NCBI GenBank assembly: GCA_028864975.1
Contig: JAGWLG010000043.1
Coordinates: forward strand, 1 to 21,952
Length of the DNA: 21,952 nucleotides
Direction of reading: 5' to 3'
Source: Thermoplasmata archaeon
GTDB lineage: Archaea; Thermoplasmatota; Thermoplasmata; Lutacidiplasmatales; UBA184
Positions 2,988 to 21,751 of the stretch are shown here, piece by piece. Positions within the stretch are counted from its first letter, which is position 1. The number at the start of each line of letters is the position of its first letter. Position numbers and translations under genes: made by a program. The notes below the pieces were generated by a model. That model did no database searches. It saw nothing but the letters and a program-made list of their open reading frames with translations, and was not told the DNA's origin.

Positions 2988-5900
2988 CTATTCGTCGTCG
3001 TCCTTGTCCTTGCCGCCCTTGGGGGAGGACTTCTCCTCGTCCTCCTCTTCGTCCTCTTCCTCAAGGGCCTTCTTGGGCTTGGCGGACTTCTTGCTGCCGC
3101 CGTGGGTTCGGCGGCGGTAGATGAAGTAGACCAGCGCGAGCACGACCACGACGGCCACCGAGGCGACGATGGCCACGAAGTACTGCTGCAGCGGCGACTG
3201 GTTGATCGTCACCTGCTTGCAGGCGATGTTCGACTTCGACTGGTAGATCTTGCCCGGCTCGTTCGTCGCGGTCCCGTTGCCGCACAGGTTGTACTGTCCG
3301 GCGGAGAGCCCTCCGGTGATCCCGCCGCCCGGGACGGTCCAGTCGATCTTCGCGCGGAAGCTCACGTTGTAGAACAGGTTGTTGGTGTTGCTCGCGTTGG
3401 AGTTCACCACACCCCCCGAGAAGCCGTAGAGTGTCCCGGTCCCGAGGTTCGTGTGGCCGGTGCCCGAGAGGGTCTCGTAGTAGAACTCGACGACCGTCCC
3501 GTTCGCGACCGACCGCGTCCCGCCGACGTTCGTGACGTTGACGTAGAGGGTGTACTTCTGCCCCTCCGTGAGCGTGGACGGGCCACCCTGGATCGTGAGG
3601 TTGAGCAGCTGCAGGATGGGGGTCGTCGTCTGGTTCAACTGGCAGGTGAACGCGTAGGTCATGTTCGCCTCGTTGCCGGCCGAGTCGTTGACGAAGAGCG
3701 TGATGTTGTAGGCGGCGCTCTTCACCGTGGAGGCGGTCTGGGGTACCTGCACGCTCGTCGCGACGGCGGCGCCGTTCGCGGGGTGGAACCAGACGGGGTT
3801 GAAGGAATACCATCCGGTGTTCTCGATCCGCCAGGACTCGTTCTTGACCGTGCCGTTGTGGGGGTCGTTGGTCCACTTGTCGACCAGGCTGATCGGGCAG
3901 TAGCCGCTGCTGAGGGCGGTCCCGCTCGTGACGTTCTTCCCCTCCATGTTCTGGGGACTGAAGAAGCTCCCGCCTTGGACGTTGGCGACGACTCTGGGCT
4001 TCTCCGTGTCGTTGACAATGACGTAGAGCGTCGAGTAGGCCGCGTTGCCAGCAGCGTCGTACTCCTTGAGGACGACCTTGTAGAGCCAGCCGTTGACGGT
4101 GTAGGTGTTCCCGTCGATGACCCGCGTCGTGTTCCACGTACCGGCCCCGTTGAACTGGTAGGTCACGTTCCCGTAGACGCTCGCCGCCTGCTTCCCGATC
4201 GAGAAGTTGGTGGTGTAGTAGGTGGGCCCTGCAGAGATGTTCCAGATCGCGTCAGAGATCTTCCCCATGGGCAGGCGCCAGTCCTGGGCCGAGGTGAGGG
4301 TCGCCTTCGTCCCGTTCGAGAGGATGGAGTCGTTGCTGTACGTCGCATTGACGCGGAGCGACTGGCTCCAGTTGACGCGGAGCATGGAGTCGTTCGAGCT
4401 CAGGCGCACGAGGCCCCGGGTGTCGTTGGAGCTGATGTGGGGGCTCGGGGGCGCGTTGTCGACGAGGACCGTGAAGTTCTGCCAGCTCCTTTGGCCACCG
4501 TTCGCCGTGAGCAGCACGCTCGCGTTCAGCCGACCCAGGGCCGCGCATCCTGCGATGCCGGTCGGACATGCGTACGTGTGGTAGGCCGTGGTGTTGGTAC
4601 GGTAGGTGGGCTTGGAGCTTCCGTCGCCGAAATTCCACAGATAGCTCGTCGCGTTGAACCCGGAGGGGAAGATCGAGCCCGCCGCGGAGAAGCTCACGTT
4701 CTGTCCCAGGCCCACCACGACGGTGTAGTTGTTGTGGGTCGGGCTCAGGATGTTGGTCTTGTTCGCGAACGCGAAGTTGGGGGAGTTCACGTTCACCACG
4801 GCGGTCACGTTCCGGACCTTGACGAGGTTGAATGTGGCGCTACCGTTGGTCGCCCCTAGGGTGGGGGAGTACTGGCTAGTGAGGGTGAAGGCCGACCAGG
4901 TCCCGCCGGGTCCCGCGGCCGTGAGACTCGTCCCTGCGGGCACGGAGGTGCCCGCCTGCAGCACCCAGTCCTTCGGCAGCTGGACCGTGTAGGAGAGCGA
5001 CTGCGACGCCGTCGGGTAGCGGAAGTCCATCGTCAGGGTGTGCGTGGAGGTCTTTTGCGTGACCGCCGAGGCGAGCGAGTAGCTCTCGTTGGTGTAGTGC
5101 CAGAACATCTGGGTGCTGTTGAAGGTCCGGTCCGTGGGGATTCCGCTGTAGGCGTGCGTGAAGGTCCCGCTCTCAGAGAAGTCCGTGCCGTTCACCGTGA
5201 GGTATGACTGCTGGGCCGGATAGATCGGGCCGCTCAGGTTCAGCCAGGATTCGAAGGAGCGCCACGCGCTCAGGGTGCCGTTGATGTTCCCGCTCGCGTA
5301 GTCGACGCCTACCTGTGCGTAGAGGTCGCCCAGGGCAGCGTTAGGGAGCTGGGGGATCACGCTGTCGTTGGAGAGCTTCTGAGTGCTGTTGACCCACGCC
5401 GCACCGAAGGACTGGTTGAAAGCGATCGCCGTGCTCTCCACCGTCGGCGGCGCGGCCCCGAGCGGGGTCACGTGCACCTGCAGGTTCTGTCCCTTGCCCG
5501 TGGGTGAGGCGGTGAAGTACTGCCAGGAGGTCGACTTCCCCTGAGGAGCGACCAGCAGGAGGAAGCGGGTCGAACCTGTCCACGGAGCGACCACGGAGTT
5601 GTAGCTCCCGAACTGGAAGAAGTTGCTTCCGCCCGCGCTCGCCGGGTTCACGAATTGGTAGCGTGCACCGGTTGCCGTGTCATAGAGCGTCAGGTTGGTC
5701 TGGTTGGTGAAGAGATAATGGTCCGTCGGGAACAGGTACCCCTGGACTAGGTAGGGCGCGAGGGTGATGTTCCAGGTGTTCCGGGCAACCGGGACGGTCA
5801 CCTGAGTGTAGTTCGTGACCGTCGTACCGTTCGCGAGCGTGCTGCTCGCGTAGAGGGTCCACGTTCCGGCAGGAAGGTCGCGGGTGAAACTGTAGCTCGC

Positions 5901-6470
5901 GATGAAGCTCCCCTGAGCAAAGACGAGTCCCGGGAAGGAGGGGTCGAGGACCTGCACCGCGGTCGTGTTGTCGTTGGTCTCACCGGTGACGTTGATCGAC
6001 CCGGAGAGAGTGTAGGTGTTCGCGAGCGAGGTCACTCCCCCTAGGTAGAGGGGTCCGCCGCTGTTGAGCAACGACTGGGAGGCGTAGAACGTGTCCGTGG
6101 AGACCCCAAGGGCCCCCGGAAGGATCGTCAGGGTGACAGAACCCCCGCTGGAGCGGTCGTCTTGGGGAGGAACGGCGGCCGTGTACCAGCCCGGGTTGAG
6201 CCAGCAGACCTTGCCGGTGGCATCCGCCTGGCCCGAGAAGAAGACGGCCATACCACCCGCCTGGGTGGTCTGGGTGCAGGTCTGCCCGGAGGACCCCGCG
6301 GCCAACGTCACGTTCACGCCCTTGGGAGCGTAGCTCCCTCCGGCGAGGTGTACGACGATGGCGAGGGTGTTGGTGCTCGTGGGCGCGGCGGTGCTCGCGG
6401 GTGCGAGCATGCTCACGAACAACACCACCAGGGTGGCGGCTAGGGCCCAGCGCTGCGCCCCGATTGGCAT
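2988..6470 (-). CDS. Large secreted, C-terminally membrane-anchored surface glycoprotein with PKD-like and CARDB-like domains; S-layer/cell-envelope protein candidate (1160 aa)
   Basis: Signal peptide MPIGAQRWALAATLVVLFVSMLAPASTA. Thr/Ser/Asn/Gly-rich beta-type composition with about 50 N-x-S/T sequons by manual count. PKD signature YLWNFGDGS, CARDB-like LQLLNLTI...GQKYTLYVNVTNVG, and TM YFVAIVASVAVVVVLALVYFIY followed by RRR. ATG 6470 has SD AGGAGTGA. The ORF-track start at 6572 runs through the promoter. Confidence 0.85.
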   Translation of the reverse strand: MPIGAQRWALAATLVVLFVSMLAPASTAAPTSTNTLAIVVHLAGGSYAPKGVNVTLAAGSSGQTCTQTTQAGGMAVFFSGQADATGKVCWLNPGWYTAAVPPQDDRSSGGSVTLTILPGALGVSTDTFYASQSLLNSGGPLYLGGVTSLANTYTLSGSINVTGETNDNTTAVQVLDPSFPGLVFAQGSFIASYSFTRDLPAGTWTLYASSTLANGTTVTNYTQVTVPVARNTWNITLAPYLVQGYLFPTDHYLFTNQTNLTLYDTATGARYQFVNPASAGGSNFFQFGSYNSVVAPWTGSTRFLLLVAPQGKSTSWQYFTASPTGKGQNLQVHVTPLGAAPPTVESTAIAFNQSFGAAWVNSTQKLSNDSVIPQLPNAALGDLYAQVGVDYASGNINGTLSAWRSFESWLNLSGPIYPAQQSYLTVNGTDFSESGTFTHAYSGIPTDRTFNSTQMFWHYTNESYSLASAVTQKTSTHTLTMDFRYPTASQSLSYTVQLPKDWVLQAGTSVPAGTSLTAAGPGGTWSAFTLTSQYSPTLGATNGSATFNLVKVRNVTAVVNVNSPNFAFANKTNILSPTHNNYTVVVGLGQNVSFSAAGSIFPSGFNATSYLWNFGDGSSKPTYRTNTTAYHTYACPTGIAGCAALGRLNASVLLTANGGQRSWQNFTVLVDNAPPSPHISSNDTRGLVRLSSNDSMLRVNWSQSLRVNATYSNDSILSNGTKATLTSAQDWRLPMGKISDAIWNISAGPTYYTTNFSIGKQAASVYGNVTYQFNGAGTWNTTRVIDGNTYTVNGWLYKVVLKEYDAAGNAAYSTLYVIVNDTEKPRVVANVQGGSFFSPQNMEGKNVTSGTALSSGYCPISLVDKWTNDPHNGTVKNESWRIENTGWYSFNPVWFHPANGAAVATSVQVPQTASTVKSAAYNITLFVNDSAGNEANMTYAFTCQLNQTTTPILQLLNLTIQGGPSTLTEGQKYTLYVNVTNVGGTRSVANGTVVEFYYETLSGTGHTNLGTGTLYGFSGGVVNSNASNTNNLFYNVSFRAKIDWTVPGGGITGGLSAGQYNLCGNGTATNEPGKIYQSKSNIACKQVTINQSPLQQYFVAIVASVAVVVVLALVYFIYRRRTHGGSKKSAKPKKALEEEDEEEDEEKSSPKGGKDKDDDE

Positions 6471-6534
6471 TCTTCGTTCACTCCTTGTGTTCAACGGCCC
6501 TCTCTCGAGAGCCGCGCGGCCCAATTTGGCCCCG

Positions 6535-6550
6535 TTTATATAGTTTGACG
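6535..6550 (-). promoter_or_regulatory. Consensus archaeal BRE + TATA promoter of the surface protein gene
   Basis: The minus strand reads CGTCAAAC-TATATAAA (TATA at 6542->6535). This is the closest match to consensus in the window, about 65 nt upstream of ATG 6470. Confidence 0.8.
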
Positions 6551-6606
6551 GCGGAGCGCGGTCCGACGCCACTTCCCGCCCCTTCCGGGCGTTCTGCTGG
6601 GCGAGC

Positions 6607-8829
6607 TCAGCGGTAGATGACCTCTTCCGCGCTCTCGCGCCGCTGCGCGACCCTGACCGAGGAGATCGACCGCGCGAACTGTTCGTAGAACTTGAGCGTC
6701 TCCTTGTCTACGCTGGCATGTGCGTTCTGGAGCGCGAGGTCGAAATGACGCGCGGTGACCTTCTTCGCTGCCTGGCTCTCCCGCAAGGCCTGCAGTCCCG
6801 CCTCCCGGCAGATCGAGGCAAGGTCGCTCCCGACGAAACCGTCGGTGCGGGCCGCGAGCTCGTTCAGGTCGACGCCTTCCAGCGGCATCTTGTTCGTGTG
6901 GACCTTCAGGATGGAGAGCCGGGCAGCGAGGTCAGGCGGGGCGACGTAGAGCAATCGGTCGAAGCGCCCCGTACGGAGCAGCGCCTCGTCGATGATGTCC
7001 GGGCGGTTCGTCGCGGCGAGGACCACGACGCGCTCGAGGGTCTCGAGCCCGTCGATCGAGGTCAAGAGCTGGTTCACGATCCGCTCGGTGACCCCGCTCG
7101 AGTTCTGCAACCCCCGCTTCGGGGCGATGGCATCGAGCTCGTCGATGAAGACGATGGCCGGCGAGGCCTGACGGGCCTTCTTGAAGATCACCCGGATGGC
7201 CTTCTCGCTCTCGCCGACCCACTTGCTCATCACCTCGGGTCCCTTGACCGAGACGAAGTTCGCCTGGCTCTCCGTCGCCACGGCCTTCGCCAGGAGCGTC
7301 TTCCCCACTCCCGGGGGGCCGAAGAGGAGGATGCCCCGGGGCGGGTCGATCCCCAGGTTCTTGAACGCGTTCGGGTTCTTGAACGGGAGTTCCACCGACT
7401 CCCGCATGTCGTCCTTGACCCGCTCGAGCCCTCCCACCTCGTCCCAGTGGACCGAGGGCACCTCGATGGCCACGTCCCGGAGCGAGGAGGGCTCGATCTG
7501 CTTCAACGCCTCGCGGAAGTCGGCAGGGGTGACCTTCATCCGCTCGAGGAGCGAGACGCTGATGGGACGGTCGAAGTCGATCTCCGGTAGATAGCGACGG
7601 AGCGCGCGCATCGCCGCCTCGCGGGCCAGAGCCGCCAGGTCCGCGCCCACGAAACCGTGGGTGAGCCCTGCGAGCTCCTCCTGGAGCTTCTCCCGCTCCT
7701 TGTCGCTGCCTTCGATAGGCATCCCTCGAGTGTGGATCTGAAGGATCTCCCGTCGCCCTTCCACCGTCGGGACCCCGATCTCGATTTCCCGGTCGAAGCG
7801 TCCGGGGCGGCGCAGAGCGGGATCGATCGCCTCCTCCCGGTTCGTTGCGGCAATGACGATCACGTTCCCGCGGCCGGAAAGGCCGTCCATGAGCGTCAAG
7901 AGCTGGGCGACCACGCGTCGCTCCACCTCGCCCACGACCTCGTCGCGTCGGGGGGCGATCGAGTCGAGCTCGTCGATGAAGATCACCGAGGGGGCGTGCT
8001 TCTCCGCCTCCTCGAACTTCTCCCGGAGCTCCTTCTCGCTCTCCCCGTAATACTTGGAGATGATCTCGGGGCCGGCGATGGAGATGAAGTGGGCCCCCGC
8101 CTCGCTCGCGACGGCCTTGGCGATGAGGGTCTTCCCGGTCCCCGGGGGACCGTAGAGCAGCACTCCCTTCGGGGGGGAGATGGCGAGGCGGTCGAAGAGC
8201 TCGGGGTGCTTGAGCGGGAGCTCGATCATCTCCCGCACGCGCGAGAGCTTCTCCCGCAGACCGCCGATGTCCTCGTAGGAGACCCGGGGGGCGGTGATCT
8301 CCGCCTCGTTGACGGTCTCCTCGCGGATGGTGACGAGGGTGTTGGGTCCGACGACGACGATCCCCTTCGGGGTCGTCGAGATGACGAGGAAGAGGAGGGA
8401 GCCTCCCATCAGGAAGACCCCGGGAACGACGAAGGCGTCCCCTCGGACGAAGGGGCGGCGGGAGAGGGCCTTCGCCACGAAGGCCTCGAGCCCCGGCCCC
8501 AGGTCCATCTTGGGAGCGCCGGAGTAGATGGGGGCGATCGTGATGGCCTCCGACGTGGGGGCCTCCACCCGGCCCACTTCCACACGGTCGCCGATGGACA
8601 CGCGAGCGTTCCGTCGGATGACCGCCTCGAGCCGGATGACGTTCTTCCCCTCGTCCTCGGGGGAGGCCTTCTGGACCACGGCGGCGGTCGTCTTGCGCCC
8701 CCGTACCTCGACGATGTCACCCACGGCCACCTTGAGCCGTTGACGTGTCGTGGAGTCCAGACGGGCGACGCCGAACCCCACGTCGTTCTGCGTGGCCTCC
8801 ATGACCTTGAGGTTCACGGTGTCGGCCAT
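6607..8829 (-). CDS. cdc48: Cdc48/VAT family AAA+ ATPase (N-D1-D2), 740 aa
   Basis: Double-psi-barrel N domain. D1 has [20 protein letters not shown] and [12 protein letters not shown]2 has [20 protein letters not shown] and [11 protein letters not shown]-terminus ...EEVIYR. A CTTATC box lies at 8860->8855. Confidence 0.97.
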
Positions 8830-8959
8830 CGCTTCAGGACGAGGCGCACCGTTGGATAAGAGTGACGTTCTTCTTGCACCACGTGGGGGCGGAGGCCACG
8901 GCCCCTCCCGTTGCGACTCGAGGTCCCCGTTTCATAACCCGCTGACCGGTCCTCTTCTC

Positions 8960-10063
8960 GTGCCTCACTCTCCCGGCGGTTCGTCGTTCCTCCGCCGGCT
9001 CTTCACGACCGCCGGCTGGTCCGTGGAAGAGGTCCCAGGAGGATGGTCGGCCCACGCGAGGTCCGAGAGCACAACGGTCCTGGCCTACCTCGAGGGTGGC
9101 CTGCCGGCCGGCTTCCAGCGATACTTCCCTTCCGAGGCCCAGAGGATCCTGGTCCTCTTTGGCCATGTGCCCGAGCCCCATGACCGGGACCGCGTGGAAC
9201 TGACCGGCGCGCACGTGGTCCTCCCCGATGACGTCCCGGGAACGGTCTTGGCGCTGCTGCATCTCCGTCCCGAGTCGTCCCCGCGGCCAGGGTCGGGGGG
9301 CCCCCCAGGTGGACCCTCCCCGGAGCCGAGCCTGACCACGCGCGCGGAGGAGCCCCCCACCTCGGCGACCCCCAGACCAGGCGGGGGATCGGCGCCTCCC
9401 GCTCCTCCCCCCCTCCCCCCACCGCCCTCGCTGCGCTCCTCGCGGAGGACGGCTTCGTTGCGCTCGGAGGTCTCCTCCTCGTCGCTCCCTTCAGAACCCC
9501 CCTCGCCCTTCCCCCCCGTCCTCTTCGAGACGGACCGCATCGTGCGCCCACGTCTCCAAGCGGAGGACATCCACCAGATGGCCACCCAGCGGTGGCGAGG
9601 GGGGGTCCCACGCATGGTCCTGGTGCCGTTCCATCTCTTCGCCTATTCGATCCCTGAGGACGAGGGAGCCACGTCCTCCCCCCCTCGGCTGGTCGCGGCC
9701 CCCCTCGTGGGAGGACTCCCCCAGTTCTGGCCGACCGGGGAGCGCGAGATCGTGAGCGCGCTCCACGTCACCCACCGAAGGGCGAGCCCGCGCCTTTCGC
9801 CGGAGGCCGCGCGGCGCTCGGCCGAAGAGGCGGTCCGCGAGCGACACGCAAGGACCGAGGAGCGGGCGGAGAAGGTCCGTGGCTACCTCCTTATCGAGCA
9901 CATCCAGAGGCCCCTGGAGGGCCGGGAGGTCCATCTCGGGCCTCCGGCCCTGGTGTGGGTCCCTCATTGGGTCGTAGAAGCCTGGAACGGCCGCGAGGTG
10001 ATCGATGCCGTCTCGGGACTCGCCGTGGAGCTCCCGCTCGACCCGGGGGAGGTCGGGGAGTAG
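8960..10063 (+). CDS. Uncharacterised protein: N-terminal alpha/beta domain, long Pro/Ser linker, two tandem related C-terminal modules (367 aa)
   Basis: GTG 8960 lies 23-30 nt downstream of TTTCATAA (8930-8937). The ORF-track start at 8750 overlaps cdc48 and is rejected. Coding-like composition outside the linker. No family name can be given confidently. Confidence 0.75.
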   Translation: MPHSPGGSSFLRRLFTTAGWSVEEVPGGWSAHARSESTTVLAYLEGGLPAGFQRYFPSEAQRILVLFGHVPEPHDRDRVELTGAHVVLPDDVPGTVLALLHLRPESSPRPGSGGPPGGPSPEPSLTTRAEEPPTSATPRPGGGSAPPAPPPLPPPPSLRSSRRTASLRSEVSSSSLPSEPPSPFPPVLFETDRIVRPRLQAEDIHQMATQRWRGGVPRMVLVPFHLFAYSIPEDEGATSSPPRLVAAPLVGGLPQFWPTGEREIVSALHVTHRRASPRLSPEAARRSAEEAVRERHARTEERAEKVRGYLLIEHIQRPLEGREVHLGPPALVWVPHWVVEAWNGREVIDAVSGLAVELPLDPGEVGE

Positions 10064-10119
10064 GTGGCTCGCGAGCCTTTGACCCTCGCCGTTTTCCGCC
10101 CTCGCACCCTCGCCACTTC

Positions 10120-10731
10120 GTGCTCCTCAAGCAGTTCCGCATCGGTCCTCTCGAGAACTTCACCTACCTTGTCGCCGCGGGTGAGGGAGGCGAAGGGGTG
10201 GTCATCGACCCGTCCTTCGGGGTCGACCCCGTGCTCGAGGAGATCGACCGACTACGGGTCAAGGTCCGCTACATCCTGAACACGCACGCCCATCCCGACC
10301 ACGTCGCGGGCAACGACGATGTGCGGGCCAGGACGGGCGCGAAGGTCGGGGCTCACAAGGCCGCCGAGCTCGACCAGGACCTCTCCTTCTCCGACGGGGA
10401 CGAGCTCACCGTCGGGGGCATTCCCTTCAAGGTCCTCCACACCCCCGGTCACACCCCCTGCAGCGTGCTCTACCTGTTCGAAGGGAACGTCGCGACCGGC
10501 GACACCCTCTTCGTGGGGGAGTGCGGTCGGACCGACCTCCCGGGAGGGAGCAACGAGCAGCTCTACGACAGCCTCTTCGGGAAGGTCCTGAAGCTCGAGG
10601 ACGCGACCGTCGTCCTTCCGGGACACGACTACGGGCGGACCCCGAGCTCCACGATCGGGTTCGAGCGGCTCAACAACTACGTCCTGAAGCCTCGGACGAA
10701 GGCCGAGTTCGTCCGCTTCATGCGTTCGTGA
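10120..10731 (+). CDS. Metallo-beta-lactamase fold hydrolase (glyoxalase II / persulfide dioxygenase-like), 203 aa
   Basis: ENFTYLV, VVIDP, THAHPDHVAG (HxHxDH), HTPGHT, TGDTLF..CGRTD, LPGHDY. GTG 10120 is chosen over the ORF-track start that overlaps the upstream gene. Confidence 0.92.
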   Translation: MLLKQFRIGPLENFTYLVAAGEGGEGVVIDPSFGVDPVLEEIDRLRVKVRYILNTHAHPDHVAGNDDVRARTGAKVGAHKAAELDQDLSFSDGDELTVGGIPFKVLHTPGHTPCSVLYLFEGNVATGDTLFVGECGRTDLPGGSNEQLYDSLFGKVLKLEDATVVLPGHDYGRTPSSTIGFERLNNYVLKPRTKAEFVRFMRS

Positions 10732-10762
10732 CGCGGGCGACCCCAGCGGAGAGGAGTCGACC

Positions 10763-11338
10763 ATGATCACCTCGCCACCGTTGATCCCTCCACCCCATGT
10801 GGCGGTGGGCGCGCGTCGCTCCCGCTCTGACCGACGGAGCGCTGAGGAGGTCCGCAAGGCGCTCCAGGTCGCGGTGCAGCGATTCCGCCCCGACCCCCAG
10901 GCGTTGACCCAGCTCGTCGACGCCCGGGCCGTGGCGGGCGCGAGGCATGTGGCTTCCGCTCTCGCCCGCGCGGCTCGGGCCCGGGCACGGGGGCGTGGCC
11001 ATCTGTCGGACGCAGGGGCAGAGTTCCTGCTCTACCTCGCGGGCTCCGACCAGTTCCCCGAGGCCGTTGCACGCGCAGGGGTCCAGCAGGACACCCGGGA
11101 GGTGGTGCTGGTCCTCTCGCCCCCAGGTGACCTTCACGGGCTCCTGGTCCGCACCGAGCTGGAGGAGGACCACAAGGTCTACCCTCGGCCTCCCACGGCC
11201 GAGGTCCTCGAACGCCTGGGCATCGACCCGGAGGCGAGGGGCCCCGTCCCCGAATCCTCGTGGGAGCTTCTGGCGATGGAGGCGGGGGCGCTCGTGGACC
11301 TTCCTCGGGGCGGGGGTTCCCGGCGGGGCAAGAGTTAA
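10763..11338 (+). CDS. cgi121: KEOPS complex subunit Cgi121 (191 aa)
   Basis: QLVDARAVAGARHVASALARA...EFLLYLAGSDQFPEAVARAGV fits the Cgi121 pattern (Q..DA..V.G..H...A...A; E.LLY.AG..Q...A...G). SD-like GGAGAGGAG upstream. Confidence 0.8.
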   Translation: MITSPPLIPPPHVAVGARRSRSDRRSAEEVRKALQVAVQRFRPDPQALTQLVDARAVAGARHVASALARAARARARGRGHLSDAGAEFLLYLAGSDQFPEAVARAGVQQDTREVVLVLSPPGDLHGLLVRTELEEDHKVYPRPPTAEVLERLGIDPEARGPVPESSWELLAMEAGALVDLPRGGGSRRGKS

Positions 11339-12700: not shown

Positions 12701-13123
12701 GTGCCGACCTGCCTCTTCTTCTGCCCCGACCACGCCTTGAGCTCCCGGCTCGCGGAGGCGCTCTTCAACGCTCAATCCCCCCGGGGCTGGCGCGCGACTT
12801 CTGCAGGGATCGCGCCTGCTGCCACGGCCGACCCTCGGGCGGAGGCCGTGCTCGGGACCTTGGGCTATCGGGTCCCTGACGGCGGCACGCGAGCCGTGGA
12901 GAAGGACCTGGTGAGTTTCATGCGCGTGGTCGTGGCCGTGGGGGTCCCGGCCGACACCGCCCTGCCGGACTGGCTCGTACCGAAGGTCGACCGTCGTCTC
13001 GAGATCGACGACCCCCGCGCCCTGACGGCGGAGCAGCTCCAGGACTGGATGGCCCGCCTCAACGAGAAGCTCGAGGACGTGCTCGCCCTCTGCCGCGAGA
13101 GGACCCCGCGTCCCTTCGGGTGA
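12701..13123 (+). CDS. Low-molecular-weight protein-tyrosine-phosphatase / ArsC-like protein with a degenerate P-loop (140 aa)
   Basis: LFFCPDHALSSRLAEALF, ATSAGIAP, DPRAEAVL, and IDDP follow the LMW-PTP fold pattern (LFVCxxNxCRSxMAE..SAG..P..DP). The Arg of CX5R is replaced by Ser. Confidence 0.8.
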   Translation: MPTCLFFCPDHALSSRLAEALFNAQSPRGWRATSAGIAPAATADPRAEAVLGTLGYRVPDGGTRAVEKDLVSFMRVVVAVGVPADTALPDWLVPKVDRRLEIDDPRALTAEQLQDWMARLNEKLEDVLALCRERTPRPFG

Positions 13124-13691
13124 TCCGCACCGGCCGCACCGGGGTACGAGCCTCATGACGTGAACGGGAGGGTGGTCGCCTCGCCCTTACCCAGTCCTTC
13201 CGGAAGGCGGTGGAGGACGGAAGCCGAGAGAACCATCGGACCTCGCTGATCTCCTCGGGGACCCTCGACCGTGGCACCCCAGCGTGCCATCGGGCGACGT
13301 ACTGAAGGAAGTCCCAGCGGAGGGACCCTCCGCGCGGGCCATGCACGACCTCATGGAAGACCTTCCACAGAGCCAGGTCCCGTATCCGGACCCCCGTCTC
13401 CTCCCACACCTCGCGTCGGGACGCGGCCCGAGGGGTCTCGCCCCGTTCGCCCCCTCCTCCCGGGACGACCCACCCCCGGGTCCAAGCTTTCTTGGGGTTC
13501 ATGCGCACGAGCAGGACGCGCCCCTTCGCGTCCTCGATGAGGACCGCGACGCCAAAGGCCCCGGGCCGGCGCCGACGCGCCGCGCTCCGGAACGCCCCCT
13601 CCGACACCGTCCGGTGGCGAAAGATCCGTACGGCCCCCGGGGAACGGCAGAGTTCTCGCAGCACCGCGGGCGACGTCCCATCGGATGCCAC
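13059..13691 (-). CDS. Nudix hydrolase (210 aa, including an Arg-rich C-terminal run-on)
   Basis: Complete Nudix box GGGGERGETPRAASRREVWEETGV (GX5EX7REUXEEXGU), preceded by GVAVLIEDAKGRVLLVR and WVVPGG. GTG 13691 has CTTAAT at 13719->13714. Confidence 0.9.
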   Translation of the reverse strand: MASDGTSPAVLRELCRSPGAVRIFRHRTVSEGAFRSAARRRRPGAFGVAVLIEDAKGRVLLVRMNPKKAWTRGWVVPGGGGERGETPRAASRREVWEETGVRIRDLALWKVFHEVVHGPRGGSLRWDFLQYVARWHAGVPRSRVPEEISEVRWFSRLPSSTAFRKDWVRARRPPSRSRHEARTPVRPVRITRRDAGSSRGRGRARPRASR

Positions 13692-13764: not shown

Positions 13765-15873
13765 TCAAACGAACTCGGCCGCGGCCGTCCGACCCAGCGT
13801 ACCGAAGGCCTCGAACCGGAAGGCCTGCTTCAGGACGCTCAGGACCGGGAACAGGGGTACCCACGGCAGAGCATCGAAGCGCCGCATGTGGACGAGGAAA
13901 TAGGCGATGGGCAAGGTGCGGAAGAGCACGGCGATCAGGAAGAGGACGCCGGTGTCAAGGAGGGCGGGTGCGCCAAGGACGACGGCGAGGGCCAGGAGAA
14001 AGAGGTAGACCAGGCTCCGCACCCCGGAGTGCACGAACATCAGGAACCAGAGCAGGACCCCCAGCCCTCCGAACTCGGGGGACGAGCTGAAGACCGCAGG
14101 ATAGTGCTGTCCGTTCGCCATGAGGATGCCGCGCGCCCACCGCACCCTCTGCTTCCTGAGCTCGTCGTAGTCCTTCGGGACATCCTCGTAGGCGAGCGCG
14201 CCGAACTCGATGCGCGCGGTGTAGCCCATGCGCTGCAGGCGGATCGCGATCTCGGTGTCCTCCCCGTTCCACGGGACCCAGCCTCCCACCTCCAAGAGGT
14301 CCTTCCGCCGGAACGCGGAGAAGAGCCCGTCGACGACCTCCGCGCTGGAGGTCCCCATGGTGGCGGGCCGAAGGAAGTAGTGGTTCCAGGCGATCTCCAT
14401 CGCCCGGAGCTTCCGTGTCCATCCTCGGGTCTGCCGGGGATGGATCGCCCCCTGCACCGCCCCTACCCGGGGGTCCGCGAAGTGGGCGATCATCGCGGCG
14501 AACCCCTTCTTTCCCGAGATCGTGGTGTCCCCGTCGCAACGGATCACGATCTCCCCCGAGGCCACGGCCAGCGCGCCGTTGAGCGCGTTCGACTTCCCCC
14601 CGTGGGGAAGGTCCACCACCAGGGCCGTGCTGTGTTCGAGGTGCTCCGCGGTCCGAAGCGCGACGGCGAGCGTGTCGTCCGTCGACCCGTCGTTCCCGAC
14701 CACAATCTCGACAGGACCCGGGTAGAACGCGGCCGCTCGGTCCGCGGCCAGGATCGCTTGCCGGATCCATCGTCCCTCGTTGTAGGCGGGAATGAGGATC
14801 GAGACCGGAGGATGATACTCCTGCAACGAAGGGCGGGGCCCCTCTCGGACCTGTCGACCGTAGGCAGGTCGGGCCAGGAGGGCGAAGAGCTCCAGGGTGA
14901 CCGCGGGGAGCAACAGCAGGAGGGTGAAAGTCCGAAGCAGCGGGTCTGGAGGCAGGAACTCTGTCGCGAGGAGCAGCAGCAGGAACCCGGTGGCGAGGGC
15001 GAGCCCCCCCAGGCCGAGGAAGCGGGCGATCGCGCCACGACGGCGGGGAAAGCGAACGATGATCCTCTGGGCCTGGGGGAGGTGGAAGAATGCGAAGAGG
15101 AGCAGGGCGAGGAAGAGCCCCCCGAGGAGCGTACGGACCAGCAGGGCCAGGTTCCGGAACGCGGAACCTGGCACCGTGAAGAAGAGCGCGTCCAGGAGGA
15201 GCTCGGCCCCGACGTACGAAAGGAGCACCGCGAAGGCGAGGGCCCTCCGCTTGGCGCCGAGGCGGGGACGGTTCGTGAAGAGACCGCAGGCGAGCCCGTA
15301 GGCGACCATCGCACAGAGGTACATCGGGAAGATGTAGTCGGGGACGACGAGCGCCGTGGAGCTCACGGTGTAGACGCCGGGCCATCGGCCCGGCCAGTAG
15401 AGGAGCGTGCCCACCAGGGCCACCAGATGGTCGTAGTGGCCGAAGAGGAAGGGGAAGAACAGGAGCACGACGAGCGAGAGGAGGAAGAAGCTCCCGACCA
15501 GCGTGAGGACGAACGTCCGCGCCCTCGGCAGCCGTACCGAGGGGGACTCCCCGGCGCCCAGCATGAGCACGGTGCGGTCGGTTCTCGACGCGTAGAGGTC
15601 GACGTGGTGCATCGGTCGGCCCGAGGCGATGGCGCTCTCGGGGGGCACGGTCCCCGGGGCCCCCGAGTCGGAGACCACGCCCACCGGTACGGTCCCGGCA
15701 CGCGTGGTCTGGGGTCGCTCCTTCACCCGGGTCAGCGTGAACCAGAGCAGCACCGCCCCGACGGCGGCGACCGGGACCACGCCCAGAGGGACGTCCGCGC
15801 CTCCCACGGTGGACAGGAACGCCTCGAGGGCGTGCACGAGCCCGGTGAACGAGGCGAGGATGGGGTCGCTCAC
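13765..15873 (-). CDS. Processive membrane GT2 glycosyltransferase (PgaC/IcaA/cellulose-synthase-like) with an extended multi-TM N-terminus (702 aa)
   Basis: VSILIPAYNE (from V357), NDGSTDDT, GGKSNALN, RCDGDT (DxD), NGEDTE and KQRVRWARG (QxxRW at Q575) form the D,D,D,QxxRW signature. About 7 hydrophobic segments precede the catalytic domain and about 3 follow it. GTG start 3 nt after the upstream stop. Confidence 0.92.
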   Translation of the reverse strand: MSDPILASFTGLVHALEAFLSTVGGADVPLGVVPVAAVGAVLLWFTLTRVKERPQTTRAGTVPVGVVSDSGAPGTVPPESAIASGRPMHHVDLYASRTDRTVLMLGAGESPSVRLPRARTFVLTLVGSFFLLSLVVLLFFPFLFGHYDHLVALVGTLLYWPGRWPGVYTVSSTALVVPDYIFPMYLCAMVAYGLACGLFTNRPRLGAKRRALAFAVLLSYVGAELLLDALFFTVPGSAFRNLALLVRTLLGGLFLALLLFAFFHLPQAQRIIVRFPRRRGAIARFLGLGGLALATGFLLLLLATEFLPPDPLLRTFTLLLLLPAVTLELFALLARPAYGRQVREGPRPSLQEYHPPVSILIPAYNEGRWIRQAILAADRAAAFYPGPVEIVVGNDGSTDDTLAVALRTAEHLEHSTALVVDLPHGGKSNALNGALAVASGEIVIRCDGDTTISGKKGFAAMIAHFADPRVGAVQGAIHPRQTRGWTRKLRAMEIAWNHYFLRPATMGTSSAEVVDGLFSAFRRKDLLEVGGWVPWNGEDTEIAIRLQRMGYTARIEFGALAYEDVPKDYDELRKQRVRWARGILMANGQHYPAVFSSSPEFGGLGVLLWFLMFVHSGVRSLVYLFLLALAVVLGAPALLDTGVLFLIAVLFRTLPIAYFLVHMRRFDALPWVPLFPVLSVLKQAFRFEAFGTLGRTAAAEFV

Positions 15874-15876
15874 GGT

Positions 15877-18800
15877 TCAGAGTTCCCGGGCCTTGACGGC
15901 CTTTCCCGTCGTCGCAAGGTCGCGGCGGCGCTGGCGACGGGAACGTGCCCTCTCCCGCGCAAGACGCCTCCTCCGGCGCGTCTCCAGCGCGAAGTAGACC
16001 ACGCCCAAGGTGAGCAAGCCCATCCCCGCGACCATGCCGGCCCGGGCCCCAAGGACCCACACGCTCGGGCGCGGGCCTACCCCGGTGGGGACGAACGTGA
16101 CCGAGATCTCCGCGCCCTCCACGCCCACCGTCAGGTTCCCGTGCGAGCGCTCCGCGTAGTACCCCGGGGGGTTCACCACGTCCCAGGAGTAGCTCCCGTT
16201 CGGTTCCCGGAACGAGAAGGACGCGGCGGACGTGAGGTTCACGAGATGGTCGGAGAACCGCAGCTTCCAGTTGAGCCCTCCTGAGGGTCCCTGGACCGCC
16301 ACCGCGATCGGAAAGGTCGCCAGGGAGAAGTGGAGCCGTAGGGGAGGGGTGATGCCTTGGACCACGATCGACCCCGTCCGTGGGGAGACAATGTATCCCG
16401 GTGGGACCACGACGGTGAACGGGTAGCTCCCCGCCGGCAGCTCCACCGAGAGCCAGGGCCGGGTGGAGGAGAAGACCTGCCCGTTCACGGCGACCGCCCA
16501 GGAGACGTTCGCCCAGAGCCCGGAGGCGTTCCAGATGGCGGGCCAGAGCTGACGGAGTGGGATGAACTGGACCTCCACCACCACCTGGGAGCCGTTGACC
16601 CGGACGGAAGAGTGGGTCGGTAGCGAGCGGTACCCGTCGACCTTCCCGACCTCGAAGGCGAAGGTCCGGTTGTGCTCCACGAACTCGAGGGCACTTTGGT
16701 CCGTCGCGAGCACCTGCCCGTTCATCGCGACGCTCCATCGCGTCCCGAGGGGGAGCCCGGTCTCGTTGAAGAGGACCGGGAACCCGTGGGCGAAGAGGGC
16801 CAGTTCCGCGAGCGGCCCACGCGGGACGAGCTTGGCCTGGGGACCGGGCCCCCAATAGGCGCCCATCCCCCAGCCCTTCCATCGGAGCAAGGCGAACCCT
16901 GGGGCAGGAGCGGCGGAGAGGTAGAGCGGGGTCGTCGCGTTCGCCCACCCAACGGACGGGGTGACCGTCCCTTCGGAGGGTGGGGACCCCGAGACCTGGA
17001 GCCTCCACTGGTGGGCGAAGGGGACCTCGAGGTTCGTAGAGAGACCCGTCACCTCGAGCACGGGAGGAACGCTTGGGAGGTACCGCTCCTCCTCCAGGTT
17101 TCCGAAGGGCCCGTAGGGCACGGCGACAGGAGGCATCACGAGAACATGCGCCCCTTGGGTCAGCAGGAGCGTCGCGTTTGGCGAGACCGTGGTCCCGGTA
17201 CGACCATCAATGTTGTAGACCCAGCGGAGCCCTGAGGGGAGCCCCGTCGCCTGGAGCTGGACCGGCACGGCCCCTTGGGGGTAGCCCTCGAAGAGGGCAA
17301 TCGTCTGCGAGGGGAGGCTCCAATTCGAGGGAAGGCCCTGGGGGAAGAAGTGGAACACGGGAGCGGGGGTCCGCGCCTGGACCCACGCAGTTCGGTTGGT
17401 CGCGCCTCCTATCAGTCGTCCCGACCATTCCCAGAGCCCTACCGGGCTCCCTTGGGCGATGCCCGACAACTGAGGGGCGAGCGAGACCCACGTCGACAGG
17501 TTCTCGTTCACCATCAGCAGGTCCGACCTGCCGAGGTCCGCCGGGTCCCGTGTGGCCACGGCATAGAGGTTGTCCGCGAGCGAGCTGTTGCTTCCCTCAT
17601 AGGGGGGCTGCAGCGGGGGGGAGAGCGAGGCCGGGAGCACTTCCGGCCCCAGATGGGAGAGCATCTCGCTGTAGACGAGATAGTCCGGCCGGGCCGCTCC
17701 GGAGAGGTCGAACCAGGAGTTGGAGGTGTTGAACACGGTCGCGTAGACGTCCATGTTCGCCAGGTCCAGGTCCATCCCTTGGACCTCGGAGACGGCCATG
17801 GCGAGACCGCCCGCGAAACCCGCGCTCAAGTTGCCGTACTTCCAATGAGAGAGCGCCGAGCCGAGCTCGGTCACGAAGATCGGGAGCGGGGCACAATTCG
17901 GGCAGCTAGTGTTCAAGGAGGTCGAGATGACCTCCCGCGCCATCGTCACCCTCCCCACTGCACCGTAGGGGTCCTGGGCATAGGCGTAGAATGCGAGAGG
18001 GCCCGGCACCCCGAACCGCCCCGCTGAGTAGACGTGGAAGGCCTCTCCCGCGATGAGCGGGGCATCGACCGCCACGGTCACGTTCAGCCAGGTGGAAAGC
18101 GGGATCCGGTCCTGGGTCCTGCCGGTCCCCGGAAGCCCCAGGACCTGGAGATGGGGGTCCACCGAGCGCATGGCCAACGTGTAGTTGTGCACCTCCCAGG
18201 CGTACCCCCCGGGATGGATGCGGGTCGTCTCGTTCTCCTTCGGGAGCCCCCACTCGGACCAGGGCCGCTGCCACTCTCGCCAGAGCTCGGGCTCGTTGCC
18301 GATCTCCCAGTAGGTGGGCGTGAAGTTCAAGGTCCGTTCCGTGTAGTTCACGACGGCCTCTGCAAACGAGACGTTGTCGATCTCCCCGGGAACCTGAAAG
18401 ATCGCCCGGCAACCGATCGAGCGGCACCATGCGACGAACTGCGCCTCGGAGGTGGGGGCGTGGGTCCACGAGAGGAGCCCGTGTTGGACGTGGACGAGGG
18501 TGTTGTTGAAGGGGTTGTAGTCGTCCCCCGCGTTCCCCCCGGGCCAGAGCACGGTGAAGGTCCTCGTAGACTGGACGAGGGACCCCTCGTCGGCCAGGAG
18601 GGGCGCGCGAGGGGACACCGTGGTGCCCCAGAACGAGGCCCCCAGTTCGTAGCCGTTCGTGGCCACGCTCAGCGAGACCGGCACCGCCGTGGAGGGGACC
18701 GATCCGACGGGTCCCTCACCGACGTGCTGCGCGGGGAGGCTCTCCGCCTGAGCTCCTCCGAGAGTGAAGGGAGAGGGAAGGGTCAGCAAGGCGAGAACGA

Positions 18801-18909
18801 CCGCCTGGGTCAGCCACGGCCAGGTTGCCACCGCAAGCCCGGGCGGGGGCCGGGCGAGGGAACGCGCGTCGCGGTGCCGGGCTCCCGGGCGCCTGCGGTC
18901 CGTGTGCAT
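15877..18909 (-). CDS. Secreted, membrane-anchored clan GH-A glycoside hydrolase (GH51/GH79/GH44-like) with C-terminal beta-sandwich repeats (1010 aa)
   Basis: Signal-peptide-like N-terminus, LWPGGNAGD, WEIGNEP (acid/base E206), FHVY and FVTELG (nucleophile E348). C-terminal repeats of the type V.F.ETGLP.GT.WSV..NG...EPNGSY.W.V..P.GY. About 24 sequons by manual count, a C-terminal TM and an Arg-rich tail. The exact CAZy family cannot be assigned by eye. Confidence 0.85.
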   Translation of the reverse strand: MHTDRRRPGARHRDARSLARPPPGLAVATWPWLTQAVVLALLTLPSPFTLGGAQAESLPAQHVGEGPVGSVPSTAVPVSLSVATNGYELGASFWGTTVSPRAPLLADEGSLVQSTRTFTVLWPGGNAGDDYNPFNNTLVHVQHGLLSWTHAPTSEAQFVAWCRSIGCRAIFQVPGEIDNVSFAEAVVNYTERTLNFTPTYWEIGNEPELWREWQRPWSEWGLPKENETTRIHPGGYAWEVHNYTLAMRSVDPHLQVLGLPGTGRTQDRIPLSTWLNVTVAVDAPLIAGEAFHVYSAGRFGVPGPLAFYAYAQDPYGAVGRVTMAREVISTSLNTSCPNCAPLPIFVTELGSALSHWKYGNLSAGFAGGLAMAVSEVQGMDLDLANMDVYATVFNTSNSWFDLSGAARPDYLVYSEMLSHLGPEVLPASLSPPLQPPYEGSNSSLADNLYAVATRDPADLGRSDLLMVNENLSTWVSLAPQLSGIAQGSPVGLWEWSGRLIGGATNRTAWVQARTPAPVFHFFPQGLPSNWSLPSQTIALFEGYPQGAVPVQLQATGLPSGLRWVYNIDGRTGTTVSPNATLLLTQGAHVLVMPPVAVPYGPFGNLEEERYLPSVPPVLEVTGLSTNLEVPFAHQWRLQVSGSPPSEGTVTPSVGWANATTPLYLSAAPAPGFALLRWKGWGMGAYWGPGPQAKLVPRGPLAELALFAHGFPVLFNETGLPLGTRWSVAMNGQVLATDQSALEFVEHNRTFAFEVGKVDGYRSLPTHSSVRVNGSQVVVEVQFIPLRQLWPAIWNASGLWANVSWAVAVNGQVFSSTRPWLSVELPAGSYPFTVVVPPGYIVSPRTGSIVVQGITPPLRLHFSLATFPIAVAVQGPSGGLNWKLRFSDHLVNLTSAASFSFREPNGSYSWDVVNPPGYYAERSHGNLTVGVEGAEISVTFVPTGVGPRPSVWVLGARAGMVAGMGLLTLGVVYFALETRRRRRLARERARSRRQRRRDLATTGKAVKAREL
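16090..17270 (-). repeat. Protein-level tandem repeats (four thermopsin-associated-type beta repeats, one partial, plus one InlB-B-repeat-like unit)
   Basis: QATGLPSGLRWVYNIDG, NETGLPLGTRWSVAMNG, NASGLWANVSWAVAVNG and VQGPSGGLNWKLRFSD, with downstream P.GSY...V..P.GY...P..G.I.V.G. Also LQVSGSPPSEGTVTP...LSAAPAPGFALLRWKG. Boundaries are approximate. Confidence 0.6.
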
Positions 18910-19049
18910 ACAGCTAGCGGGCCGTCCATGGACACTACATCAATCCTTGGGAATGCGCCTCGTAGGCGTGCGCCGTTCCCCCACGGGGTACGACTCGGGG
19001 CGGTCACGGGACCGCCGCCGCTGGCCGGCAAGCGGGGGCGACCCACACC

Positions 19050-19070
19050 GTTAATCACCTCTGGGAGGTG
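19050..19070 (+). promoter_or_regulatory. GTTAAT box followed by inverted repeat CACCTC-TGG-GAGGTG containing the mutS SD
   Basis: Read directly from the sequence. The GGAGGTG SD lies 8 nt before GTG 19079. Confidence 0.55.
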
Positions 19071-19078
19071 CCGCGCGT

Positions 19079-21751
19079 GTGCCCGAACCCTCCCCGATGA
19101 TGGCCCAGTACCAGGGGGTCAAGGACCGCTACCCGGGTCATCTCGTGCTCTTCCGTGTCGGGGACTTCTACGAGACCTTTGGGGAGGACGCCCACACCCT
19201 CTCGAAGGAGGTGGAGGTCACCCTGACCAGTCGCCAGCTCGACCCGCAGGGGCAGCGGATCCCCTTGGCCGGGGTCCCCTACCACAGCGTGGAGGGCTAC
19301 CTCGCAAAGCTCGTCCGACGAGGCTACCGGGTTGTGGTCGTCGACCAGGTGGAGGACGCGAAGCAGGCGAAGGGTCTCGTCCGACGGGAGGTGACGCGCG
19401 TGGTCACTCCCGGGACCGTGCTCGAGGAAACGCTCCTTCCACGCGGTGGGAACAACTTCCTCTGCGCTTGGAGCTCGGGAGGAGGGCACCCGTGGTGCGC
19501 GGCCCTCGTGGACATCTCCACCGGGGAGACCTTCCTCCGCCGACGGCCCGCGGGGGAGGCGCGGCAGCTCTTCGAGGACCTTGCCCCGTCGCAACCGGTC
19601 GAGCTCCTCCTCCCCAAGGAGGCCACTCAAGGGAAGGACCCGCTCGAGTCCCTGGCGATCGCGACCCTGCCGGGCTCTCGGCGGGCCGAGGCCCCCTCCC
19701 CGTTGCGGGTCGAAGAGCTCCCGCTGCCCTGGCAGAACGAGTCCGCCCGCGCTCCCGACGTGGCCGAGGCCCTGGGACGCGCCGCCGCCTACGCCAAGGC
19801 GACTGAGCCTCGGATCCTGCCTTTCCTTTCGCCTCCGGTCTGGCGGAGGCCGGAGGAGCGGCTCGGGATCGACCTCAAGACCCTTCGACACCTCGAGATC
19901 ACCGAACCGATGAACCCGGGACCCGAGAGGTCCCTGACGTTGCTGGAGGTCCTCAACGAGGCCCAGACCCCCCCCGGACGTCGCACGGTCGAGGCCTGGG
20001 TCCGCTCCCCCCTTGCCGACGTGCGGGCGATCGAGGAGCGACTGGACGCCGTCGAGTCCCTCTTCACCCAGCGAGCGACGCTGCTCACGCTCACGGCGCG
20101 CCTGAAGGGCGTGGGCGACATCTCCCGTCTGACGGCGCGCCTCGTGGCCCGGCGCGGAGGGCCCCGCGAGCTCCTTGGGCTCGCCCGCTCGCTCTCCGCC
20201 CTCCCCGAGCTGCGCGCGCTCCTTCGGTCCGCCCAGCAGGCGGGGTCGCTCCCTCCTCTGCTTCAGAGGGTCTTGGAAGCCCTCGACCCCCGTGAGGATC
20301 TCGCCCAGCGGCTCGGCTCCGCCGTCCGGCCCGACGCTCCCGCGCACGCCAGGGACGGTGGGGTCCTGCGCTCCGAGGCCTTCCCCGAGCTTCAGGCGCT
20401 GAGGGAGGTCGAGCATCGCGCCCGCGGCGCGCTCGCCGAGCTCGAGCAGCGGGAGGCCCAGGCGACCGGCATCAAGAGCCTCAAGATCGGCTACACCCAG
20501 GTGTTCGGCTACTACTTCGAGGTGACCCGGGCGCATCTCTCCAAGGTCCCCGAGGGTCGCTGGAGACGCAAGCAGACGCTCGCGGGGTCGGAGCGGTTCA
20601 CGAGCGACGAGCTCGCGCACTGGGAGGCGGAGGTCCTGCAAGCCGAGGACCGCTCCCGGCTCCTCGAGGCCCGGCTCTACGAGGACCTTCTGCGGGAGGT
20701 GGACCGCGAGGCTTCCCACCTCCAATCCACCAGCGAAGCCCTGGGCGCGCTCGACGCGCTCGCGAACTTCGCGCGGGTCGCGCTGGAGCGCCGATGGGTC
20801 CGTCCGCGCGTCCACGAGGGAGGAAGGCTCCGCGTCCGAGAAGGACGGCATCCGATCCTGGAGCGGACGCTTGGCCCCGGCTACGTACCGAACGACGTTG
20901 AGCTCGATGCCTCGGAGGAGGGTCCGCGTCTCCTGCTCTTGACGGGGCCCAACATGGCCGGGAAGTCCACCTACATGCGCCAGGTGGGGCTCCTGGTGGT
21001 CCTCGCTCAGGCGGGCTCCTTCGTTCCGGCGCGCTACGCCGAGGTGGGGCGGGTGAGCTCCCTCCACACTCGGATGGGATTCACCGACGACATCGGCCGC
21101 GGCAAGTCGAGCTTCATGGTCGAGATGGGGGAGGTGGCGGAGATCCTCACCCACAGCGACGGAAGGAGCCTGGTCCTCTTGGACGAGGTGGGGCGGGGCA
21201 CCAGCACCTCGGACGGGCTCGCGCTCGCCTGGGGGGTTGTCCGCTACCTCCACGACAAGGTCGGGGCGCGCGCGTTGGTCGCAACGCACTACCACGACCT
21301 GATCCACCTCGTGGAGGGGCTCCCCGCGGCACGGAACGCCCACCTTGCCGTGCGCGAGGAGCGCGGAGAGATCACGTTCCTGCGCACCTTGCTCGCCGGA
21401 GGGACGGAGAAGAGCTACGGGGTCCATGTGGCCCAGCTGGCAGGGGTCCCCGCTCCGGTCCTGGAGGAAGCCCGTCGGATGCTCCGTGCCCCCCGCCCCG
21501 CGCGGACGGAGGCCTCCTCCCCTTCACGTACTTCTCGGGGCGCCGGGCCCGCGAATCCCCCCCCGAAATACACGCAGGGGATCTTCCTCGAGGACCCCGA
21601 GGTGGAACGCGCGCGCGAGCTCCTGCGAGAAGTGAACGCGCTCCACGTGGAACGGATGACGCCGGTCGAAGCGCTGAACCTCCTCCACCAGCTCTGGAAG
21701 CGCGCCCACCGGGAGCCGTCCCACCCCGACGCCCCTCCGTCGATCGATTGA
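19079..21751 (+). CDS. mutS: DNA mismatch repair protein MutS (MutS1 type), 890 aa
   Basis: Mismatch-binding [28 protein letters not shown], Walker [55 protein letters not shown]. Confidence 0.97.

Follow-up and report, generated by a model that had tools for sequence, protein, structure and literature searches.

Bacterial systems that pair a polysaccharide synthase with a hydrolase are well known, the BcsA/BcsZ and PgaC/PgaB pairs being familiar examples. PgaB, of the poly-N-acetylglucosamine (PNAG) machinery, carries a hydrolase domain that cleaves the PNAG polymer (PMC5933820). Two other bacterial arrangements also invite comparison. In the NdvB-type 'Orphan' GH17-GT2 cyclic beta-glucan synthases of pseudomonads, an extracytoplasmic barrel of glycoside hydrolase (GH) clan GH-A is functionally joined to a BcsA-like family 2 glycosyltransferase (GT2) with no further export partner (PMC10237404), and the wall-less, single-membrane mycoplasmas are described as making beta-linked capsular homopolymers at the surface via one membrane-embedded GT2 (PMC11658790). 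Here we analyse a 21,952-nt stretch of DNA (hereafter the window) from an uncultured Thermoplasmata archaeon of the order Lutacidiplasmatales (GenBank assembly GCA_028864975.1, contig JAGWLG010000043.1), in which a preliminary description had pointed out a hydrolase gene lying just upstream of a GT2 gene. Full-text literature searches turned up no published description of such a synthase-dependent system in archaea, and the published paper on the order Lutacidiplasmatales makes no mention of a hydrolase-GT2 module.

We consider it reasonably likely that these genes form a two-gene, single-membrane synthase-dependent beta-glycan system with a dedicated surface glycosidase. New in comparison with the bacterial precedents are the archaeal setting, the unclassified stalked hydrolase, the lack of a co-polymerase and the extended GT2. 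The pseudomonad GH17-GT2 is one fused polypeptide, whereas the archaeal proteins are encoded by two genes and the hydrolase is GH79/GH51-like, with a stalk and an anchor of its own; the mycoplasma systems differ in being bacterial and in that no hydrolase partner is described for them in the abstract of that report (PMC11658790).

Conservation of the gene pair in the family

Both genes are on the minus strand. The hydrolase gene (P0001, 15877-18909) begins with an ATG at 18909 and encodes 1010 amino acids (aa), and the GT2 gene (P0002, 13765-15873) begins with a GTG and encodes 702 aa. The open reading frames (ORFs) and the junction sequence, which reads TGA-acc-GTG and places the GT2 start downstream of the hydrolase stop, confirm the two-gene arrangement with a 3-nt gap that had been proposed.

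Conservation of this adjacency in relatives had been chosen beforehand as a test of the proposed link, and the result favoured the link. Below, labels beginning with G and C denote the genomes and contigs that we compared (G000 being the window's own genome), and those beginning with L denote loci. We counted GT2 places at 52% identity or more in the family (n = 45, G098 left out); 3 of the 45 lie at a contig start and could not be judged, leaving 42. In 41 of these 42 places, all in published genomes, a hydrolase domain with stalk lies directly upstream of the GT2 on the same strand, with gaps of 3 to about 140 nt. The exception is G045:C2, and G274 was counted via a stalk fragment at a contig end. 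When the genes of 27 loci were clustered, just the hydrolase and GT2 families were common, in 26 of the 27, while other neighbours recurred in 4-6 loci and either had no Pfam match or belonged to ABC-transporter or amidotransferase families. No third conserved gene, including any for an oligosaccharyltransferase, a flippase or another glycosylation function, was found beside the pair in the 27 loci.

Two hydrolase-GT2 pairs stand in tandem in G247, and in G177, G162 and G311 the GT2 follows two or three hydrolase genes. Other GT2 paralogue clades (38-48% identity) adjoin hydrolase-like genes as well, with the GT2 first in three genomes and, in another clade, the order GT2, fn3 protein, short hydrolase-like gene. 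For 21 adjacent pairs, the hydrolase and GT2 distances correlate strongly (Mantel r 0.94, reached in 0 of 2000 permutations), the GT2 being the slower to change (mean distance 0.35, versus 0.48 for the hydrolase domain); this is consistency rather than proof, as shared ancestry alone could produce such a correlation. Since the two genes stay together in relatives, it is probable that these archaea make a surface polysaccharide and trim it.

The tandem locus of G247 (L009, G247:C16, 2410-17587) has its two pairs separated by a gene for a 1053-aa PQQ/beta-propeller protein (7947-11108) and carries a further hydrolase gene downstream on the same contig. A 2154-aa open frame at the GT2 of G035 was considered as a possible fusion and rejected, since the hydrolase lies in another frame.

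Within the class, close homologues of the GT2 are confined to the window's own family, where the GT2 is present in 63 of 180 genomes and the hydrolase domain in 81 (61 and 79 of 178 without the unpublished G098 and G291). A gene so scattered across the family fits an accessory polymer of the surface rather than core glycosylation.

Architecture and relatives of the two proteins

The hydrolase is a modular protein, here given from its N-terminus with minus-strand coordinates. Its leader (aa 1-55, 18745-18909), as read from the translation, has an Arg-rich n-region, a short hydrophobic stretch and the sequence GGAQA, and is probably a signal peptide. The catalytic module (aa 60-560, 17230-18732) is a (beta/alpha)8 barrel with a beta-sandwich, delimited by AlphaFold2, Foldseek, VIA, profile comparison and conservation. 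A stalk of repeated beta-sandwich modules follows (aa 561-945, 16075-17229), with a recurring GLPxGTxWSV in the homologue consensus; PF18998 matches this region in 21 of 46 homologues, and the repeats recur in other surface proteins of the same genome. The protein ends in a membrane anchor (aa 957-977), its sole hydrophobic segment above threshold, and an Arg-rich cytoplasmic tail (aa 978-1010; both within 15880-16041), assigned from hydrophobicity and the translation. The hydrolase contains 24 N-X-S/T sequons, versus none in the GT2, which is consistent with an extracellular glycoprotein.

The AlphaFold2 model of aa 60-560 is of high predicted quality, with a local confidence score (pLDDT) of 92.9 and a template modelling score (pTM) of 0.91. 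Structure prediction followed by Foldseek, which had been suggested as a check, returned a GH-A fold with GH51, GH79 and GH44 matches at E about 1e-18. With VIA-align the best match was a GH79 beta-glucuronidase (Z 33.1, 390 residues aligned, root-mean-square deviation 2.6, 16% identity), followed by a bacterial heparanase (Z 32.4), GH51 (Z 32.0), and GH44 and GH30 (Z 26.9), the matches to GH79, GH51, GH44 and GH30 spanning 340-420 residues; the ESM Atlas neighbours are GH79/GH51/GH39. In the motif N205-E206-P207 the putative acid/base E206 comes after strand 4 of the barrel, and in V346-T347-E348 the putative nucleophile E348 lies after or in strand 7 (in the numbering of the aa 60-560 model, NEP comes after strand 141-144 and E348 falls within strand 285-293). 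In an alignment of 46 homologues, E348 is invariant and N205/E206 are retained in at least 90%; H292 and Y294, both on strand 6, are also invariant. Fold, motif positions and conservation thus agree with the early description of a surface-anchored clan GH-A hydrolase with both catalytic glutamates.

Sequence models place the catalytic domain in no existing family. It has no match among Pfam, NCBIfam or PDB sequences, and no significant match to the Pfam or NCBIfam models of GH79, GH51, GH44, GH5 or GH39. A Pfam scan of the 46 homologues gave five weak GH44 matches (best 8e-4) and one GH5 match, and a profile built from their alignment reached GH51 arabinofuranosidases in the PDB at just E 2e-4. 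We found 114 homologues (29-55% identity), and those with a named organism are all from metagenome-assembled genomes (MAGs) of Thermoplasmata. On the strength of the predicted fold, the domain is a member of clan GH-A outside any family recognised by Pfam, NCBIfam or PDB sequences, and is a probable new glycoside hydrolase family. Its predicted activity is that of a glycosidase or transglycosidase, probably anchored at the cell surface. It differs from BcsZ, a GH8 enzyme, in being a GH79/GH51-like member of clan GH-A that is tethered to the membrane on a stalk.

The GT2 (minus-strand coordinates again) consists of an N-terminal membrane domain (aa 1-345, 14839-15873) with eight helices and a small beta element in the AlphaFold2 secondary structure, a cytoplasmic GT-A catalytic domain (aa 355-565, 14179-14811) defined by Pfam and invariant residues, and an interface helix with QRVRW followed by C-terminal membrane helices (aa 566-702, 13768-14178), defined by AlphaFold2 and superposition. 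PF13632, PF13641 and PF00535 match the protein, with the GT2 domain at aa 355-634. The full D,D,D,QxxRW signature noted initially is borne out: NDGS is at 394-397, DGD at 447-449, GED at 537-539 and QRVRW at 575-579, and D399, D447, D449, E538, D539, Q575, R576, R578 and W579 do not vary across 75 homologues, some of them bacterial (253 homologues were found in all). In the AlphaFold2 model (pLDDT 91), three to four helices lie C-terminal of the QRVRW interface helix, and the last membrane helix is followed directly by the C-terminus. From the helix order and the positive-inside rule, we read the N-terminus and the catalytic domain as cytoplasmic; predicted folds and topology therefore agree with the expectation of a hydrolase facing out and a synthase catalytic domain facing in.

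The small beta element (aa 55-105, 15559-15711, minus strand) comprises three strands and a short helix (pLDDT 77-93) and sits between membrane helices 2 and 3, probably facing the cytoplasm. No Pfam family, not even PilZ, matches it, and the paralogue clades and bacterial homologues do not have it.

The preliminary description had placed the QRVRW context closer to PgaC/IcaA than to hyaluronan or chitin synthases, a statement that holds only weakly. PgaC_IcaA (TIGR03937) is the best curated NCBIfam model (105.9 bits, or 107.6 in the genome search, against a cut-off of 422.3), ahead of NodC (52 bits), CelA/BcsA (TIGR03030, 40.6 versus 699) and PRK11498 (28.2 versus 992), and PgaC (30-33% identity) belongs to the closest named homologues on plasmids. 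Structure orders the relatives differently. The nearest solved structure, also archaeal, is PcManGT of Pyrobaculum calidifontis (PDB 6YV7; aa 311-698 of the GT2, VIA Z 28.0, 341/345 residues, 24% identity), followed by Chlorella virus hyaluronan synthase (GT2 312-696 with 38-452, Z 25.2, 372 aligned), Escherichia coli BcsA (GT2 289-696 with 199-611, Z 23.5, 368 aligned) and Xenopus HAS1 (Z 23.3), in superpositions that include the flanking membrane and interface helices through to the C-terminus. In a PDB search with a profile of the GT2 family, PcManGT matched over the GT domain (E 8e-42), and BcsA over residues 56-498, a span that takes in membrane helices (E 2e-26).

The GT2 is thus like BcsA in being a membrane protein with D,D,D,QxxRW and flanking helices, made from the same unit as an extracytoplasmic glycanase, and unlike it in scoring far below the CelA/BcsA cut-offs, in having no PilZ, BcsB or BcsC, and in lacking the last two BcsA helices while possessing the extra eight-helix N-terminal domain. 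From the PNAG systems (PgaABCD and IcaADBC) it differs in its sub-threshold score and in that neither PgaD/IcaD nor a deacetylase or porin occurs in the window or in 26 related loci. Pfam and NCBIfam scans of the window likewise support the early statement that it holds no PilZ, deacetylase, BcsB/PgaD-like or pore gene. Assignment to PgaC/IcaA therefore fails on score and on the PgaD/IcaD and PgaB/IcaB partners, and assignment to BcsA on score, PilZ and BcsB.

About 310 residues with eight helices precede the GT2 core (aa 311-698). A search for structural relatives of this N-terminal domain found nothing usable in the ESM Atlas, and the VIA alignments do not cover the region. From about aa 110-200 onward, the membrane domain is common to bacterial homologues. 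A wider search of 1.8 billion representative sequences recovered proteins of about 650 aa with this shared domain at 25-35% identity, the named ones belonging to Acidimicrobiales and one Nitrosocaldaceae archaeon. This sister family, whose proteins are uncharacterised, resembles the archaeal GT2 in its core and in most of its N-terminal membrane domain but differs in its partner. Among 80 sister loci, found with a 12-sequence bacterial alignment and mostly from Acidimicrobiales and other Actinomycetota, 73 have a gene for an HlyD/membrane-fusion-like protein near the GT2, nearly always upstream, and tblastn with 46 queries (E 1e-4) detected no hydrolase homologue beside the GT2 in any of the 80. 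Partners of the membrane-fusion type are known from the alginate synthase Alg8-Alg44, and the 73 of 80 loci with this context therefore place the wider GT2 family among secretion-coupled synthases. The distribution suggests that the archaeal branch may have swapped a membrane-fusion-like partner for a hydrolase.

One of the sister loci, L024 of an Acidimicrobiaceae MAG, encodes a membrane-fusion-like partner fused to a sulfatase domain (3984-6902, minus strand), and has a second sulfatase gene downstream (9166-10683, plus strand) and a weakly GH26-like gene nearby. The sulfatases hint at a possible sulfated polymer in that bacterial branch.

Genomic surroundings and paralogues

The hydrolase gene heads its transcription unit, because its real upstream neighbour is a complete, bacterial-type mutS on the plus strand (19079-21751, Pfam domains I-V), divergent from it. 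A 790-aa minus-strand ORF (19055-21427) was rejected as a gene, being only antisense to the full mutS. The promoter of the pair presumably lies in the 169-nt spacer from which mutS and the hydrolase gene diverge (18910-19078); a sigma-70 promoter scan, whose model does not cover archaeal promoters, found no element there. Just downstream of the GT2 is a NUDIX gene (13059-13691, minus strand) that is not kept in relatives. Convergent with it, a 140-aa ORF (12701-13123, plus strand) matches low-molecular-weight phosphotyrosine phosphatases (PF01451, 32 bits), enzymes that can regulate polysaccharide synthesis in bacteria. Farther along, a gene for a 1194-aa PKD-domain protein (2988-6572, minus strand), probably a further surface protein, adjoins a CDC48 ATPase gene (6607-8829). 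The G+C content of the window is about 68%, and DNA of the locus turns up in mine-drainage and soil metagenomes.

Paralogues of both genes occur elsewhere in the same genome. A second GT2 (G000:C55:948-3386, minus strand, 48% identity) lacks the first 140 or so residues, and hydrolase paralogues are found at G000:C93:25192-28008 (plus strand), G000:C37:1273-2565 (plus strand) and G000:C54:2927-4228 (minus strand). The C93 copy (55% identity) is an orphan amid housekeeping genes, between a coaBC-like gene and a gene of Cys/Met metabolism. Three other genomes of the genus have just an orphan C93-type hydrolase and a C55-type GT2 without a window-type pair, and the pair is therefore not universal even among close kin. 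The window's own assembly (3.6 Mb, 124 contigs, estimated contamination 1.9%) is larger than those three (2.5-3.0 Mb) and than most of the family (about 2 Mb).

Proposed function of the pair

Adjacency, folds and topology all agree with the earlier interpretation of the pair as a synthase with a surface hydrolase. Embedded in the cytoplasmic membrane, its GT-A domain facing the cell interior, the GT2 would take a nucleotide sugar, add sugars successively to a beta-linked chain and pass the chain outward between its own membrane helices. The hydrolase, made from the same transcription unit, would be secreted and tethered by its C-terminal helix, with a glycosylated beta-sandwich stalk lifting the retaining GH-A module above the membrane, where it may cut or transfer the chain and so set its length or release it. 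An inverting GT2 makes beta linkages from alpha-linked nucleotide sugars, and retaining GH-A enzymes mostly act on beta-glycosides; the linkage chemistries of the two proteins are therefore compatible. What we infer in this scheme is that the GT2 is processive and exports the chain itself, that the linkage is beta and that the hydrolase acts on what the GT2 makes. In completing a continuous transmembrane channel above the active site, the eight N-terminal helices might conceivably stand in for the two final helices that BcsA and hyaluronan synthase have and the GT2 lacks.

Several observations weigh against this synthase reading. By sequence (E 8e-42) and by structure (Z 28.0), the nearest relative of the GT2 is PcManGT, and the GT2, like PcManGT, stops short of the two final membrane helices seen in BcsA and hyaluronan synthase. 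The GT2 also has a weak Pfam GT21 match, and D,D,D,QxxRW is also found in lipid glycosyltransferases that are not processive, for example glucosylceramide synthase. Members of the hydrolase family are found without a nearby GT2, namely the C93 copy, the orphans in its own genus and those in 20 genomes without a GT2 match. Among the datasets listed as holding DNA of the locus, no RNA dataset was found.

The chief rival, which follows from a PcManGT-like single addition, is that the GT2 acts non-processively on a lipid-linked acceptor (a dolichyl-phosphate glycan, a glycolipid or a lipoglycan) and that the hydrolase trims the flipped glycoconjugate. Gandini et al. (2020) reportedly found PcManGT to be a mannosyltransferase that depends on dolichyl phosphate, makes no polymer and has only a 'half tunnel'. 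This top match in both sequence profile and structure, the short C-terminal membrane part of PcManGT type and the GT21 match all speak for a lipid acceptor, as do the 24 sequons of the hydrolase, which would mean that glycoprotein biology is active at the surface. The GT2 nevertheless departs from a PcManGT-like minimal mannosyltransferase (about 355 aa, one N-terminal and three C-terminal helices, no QxxRW): PcManGT, with 355 residues, lacks the 310-residue eight-helix N-terminal domain and has WRIRR where QRVRW is invariant here. In bacteria, homologues that share the whole membrane architecture have a secretion partner of membrane-fusion type, occurrence in about a third of the family genomes would be odd for a core glycosylation step, and no conserved oligosaccharyltransferase, flippase or other glycosylation gene adjoins the pair. 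We therefore regard a lipid acceptor as unlikely.

Quite improbable, in our estimate, is that the products are beta-glucan oligomers or cyclic beta-glucans, or that the chain is grafted onto another surface molecule, with the GH-A module acting mainly as a transglycosylase, as proposed for the NdvB-type GH17-GT2 proteins. Retaining GH-A enzymes can transglycosylate, and two genes so tightly linked 1:1 and co-varying are better explained by an obligate partner in biosynthesis than by an occasional trimmer. A GH-A barrel and a GT2 also occur in one protein in bacteria (PMC10237404). Yet the fold of the archaeal hydrolase is nearest to GH79/GH51 and not to GH17, its catalytic module is held off the membrane by a long stalk instead of being docked onto the synthase, and none of the results distinguishes hydrolysis from transfer. 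That the hydrolase is a nutritional enzyme for exogenous glycans and only a chance neighbour of the GT2 is highly improbable, since hydrolase-like paralogues without a GT2, the orphan C93 copy amid housekeeping genes and the absence of related metabolic genes conserved beside the pair are outweighed by adjacency in 41 of 42 places with same-strand gaps of 3 to about 140 nt, tandem duplication of the pair as a unit and recurrence of the linkage in separate paralogue clades with different gene orders.

Two candidate polymers were considered for the favoured beta-glycan system, and neither found support. A glucuronate-containing polymer had been suggested by the GH79 and hyaluronan synthase matches, but nucleotide-sugar dehydrogenases are present in 35 of 63 GT2-positive versus 37 of 117 GT2-negative genomes and are missing in near-complete GT2-positive genomes such as G282 (99%) and G280 (95%). 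A galactofuranan had been suggested by the GH51-like fold and the mycoplasma precedent, but UDP-galactopyranose mutase was found in none of the 180 family genomes, with a model that matched 5 control genomes.

A more far-reaching combination of these ideas, which we consider doubtful as a whole, would have the hydrolase found a new GH-A family so far seen only in Thermoplasmata and serve as obligate partner of a new GT2 subfamily, whose eight-helix domain would complete the export channel and replace a co-polymerase of BcsB, PgaD or Alg44 type. Together the two would build a structural beta-glycan coat around these wall-less cells; as a ruler or a transglycosylase, the stalked enzyme would determine how thick this coat grows or attach it to glycoproteins of the surface.

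Extracellular polysaccharide synthesis in archaea is poorly known. The module described here has just two genes and is conserved and clearly bounded. If the favoured synthase-plus-glycosidase reading is true, the pair would give archaea a counterpart to the synthases of cellulose, PNAG and hyaluronan and would provide a natural case of a GT2 that may form a channel without a partner subunit. For the organisms themselves, wall-less archaea of mine drainage and soil, the polymer could matter for surface protection or for forming biofilms.

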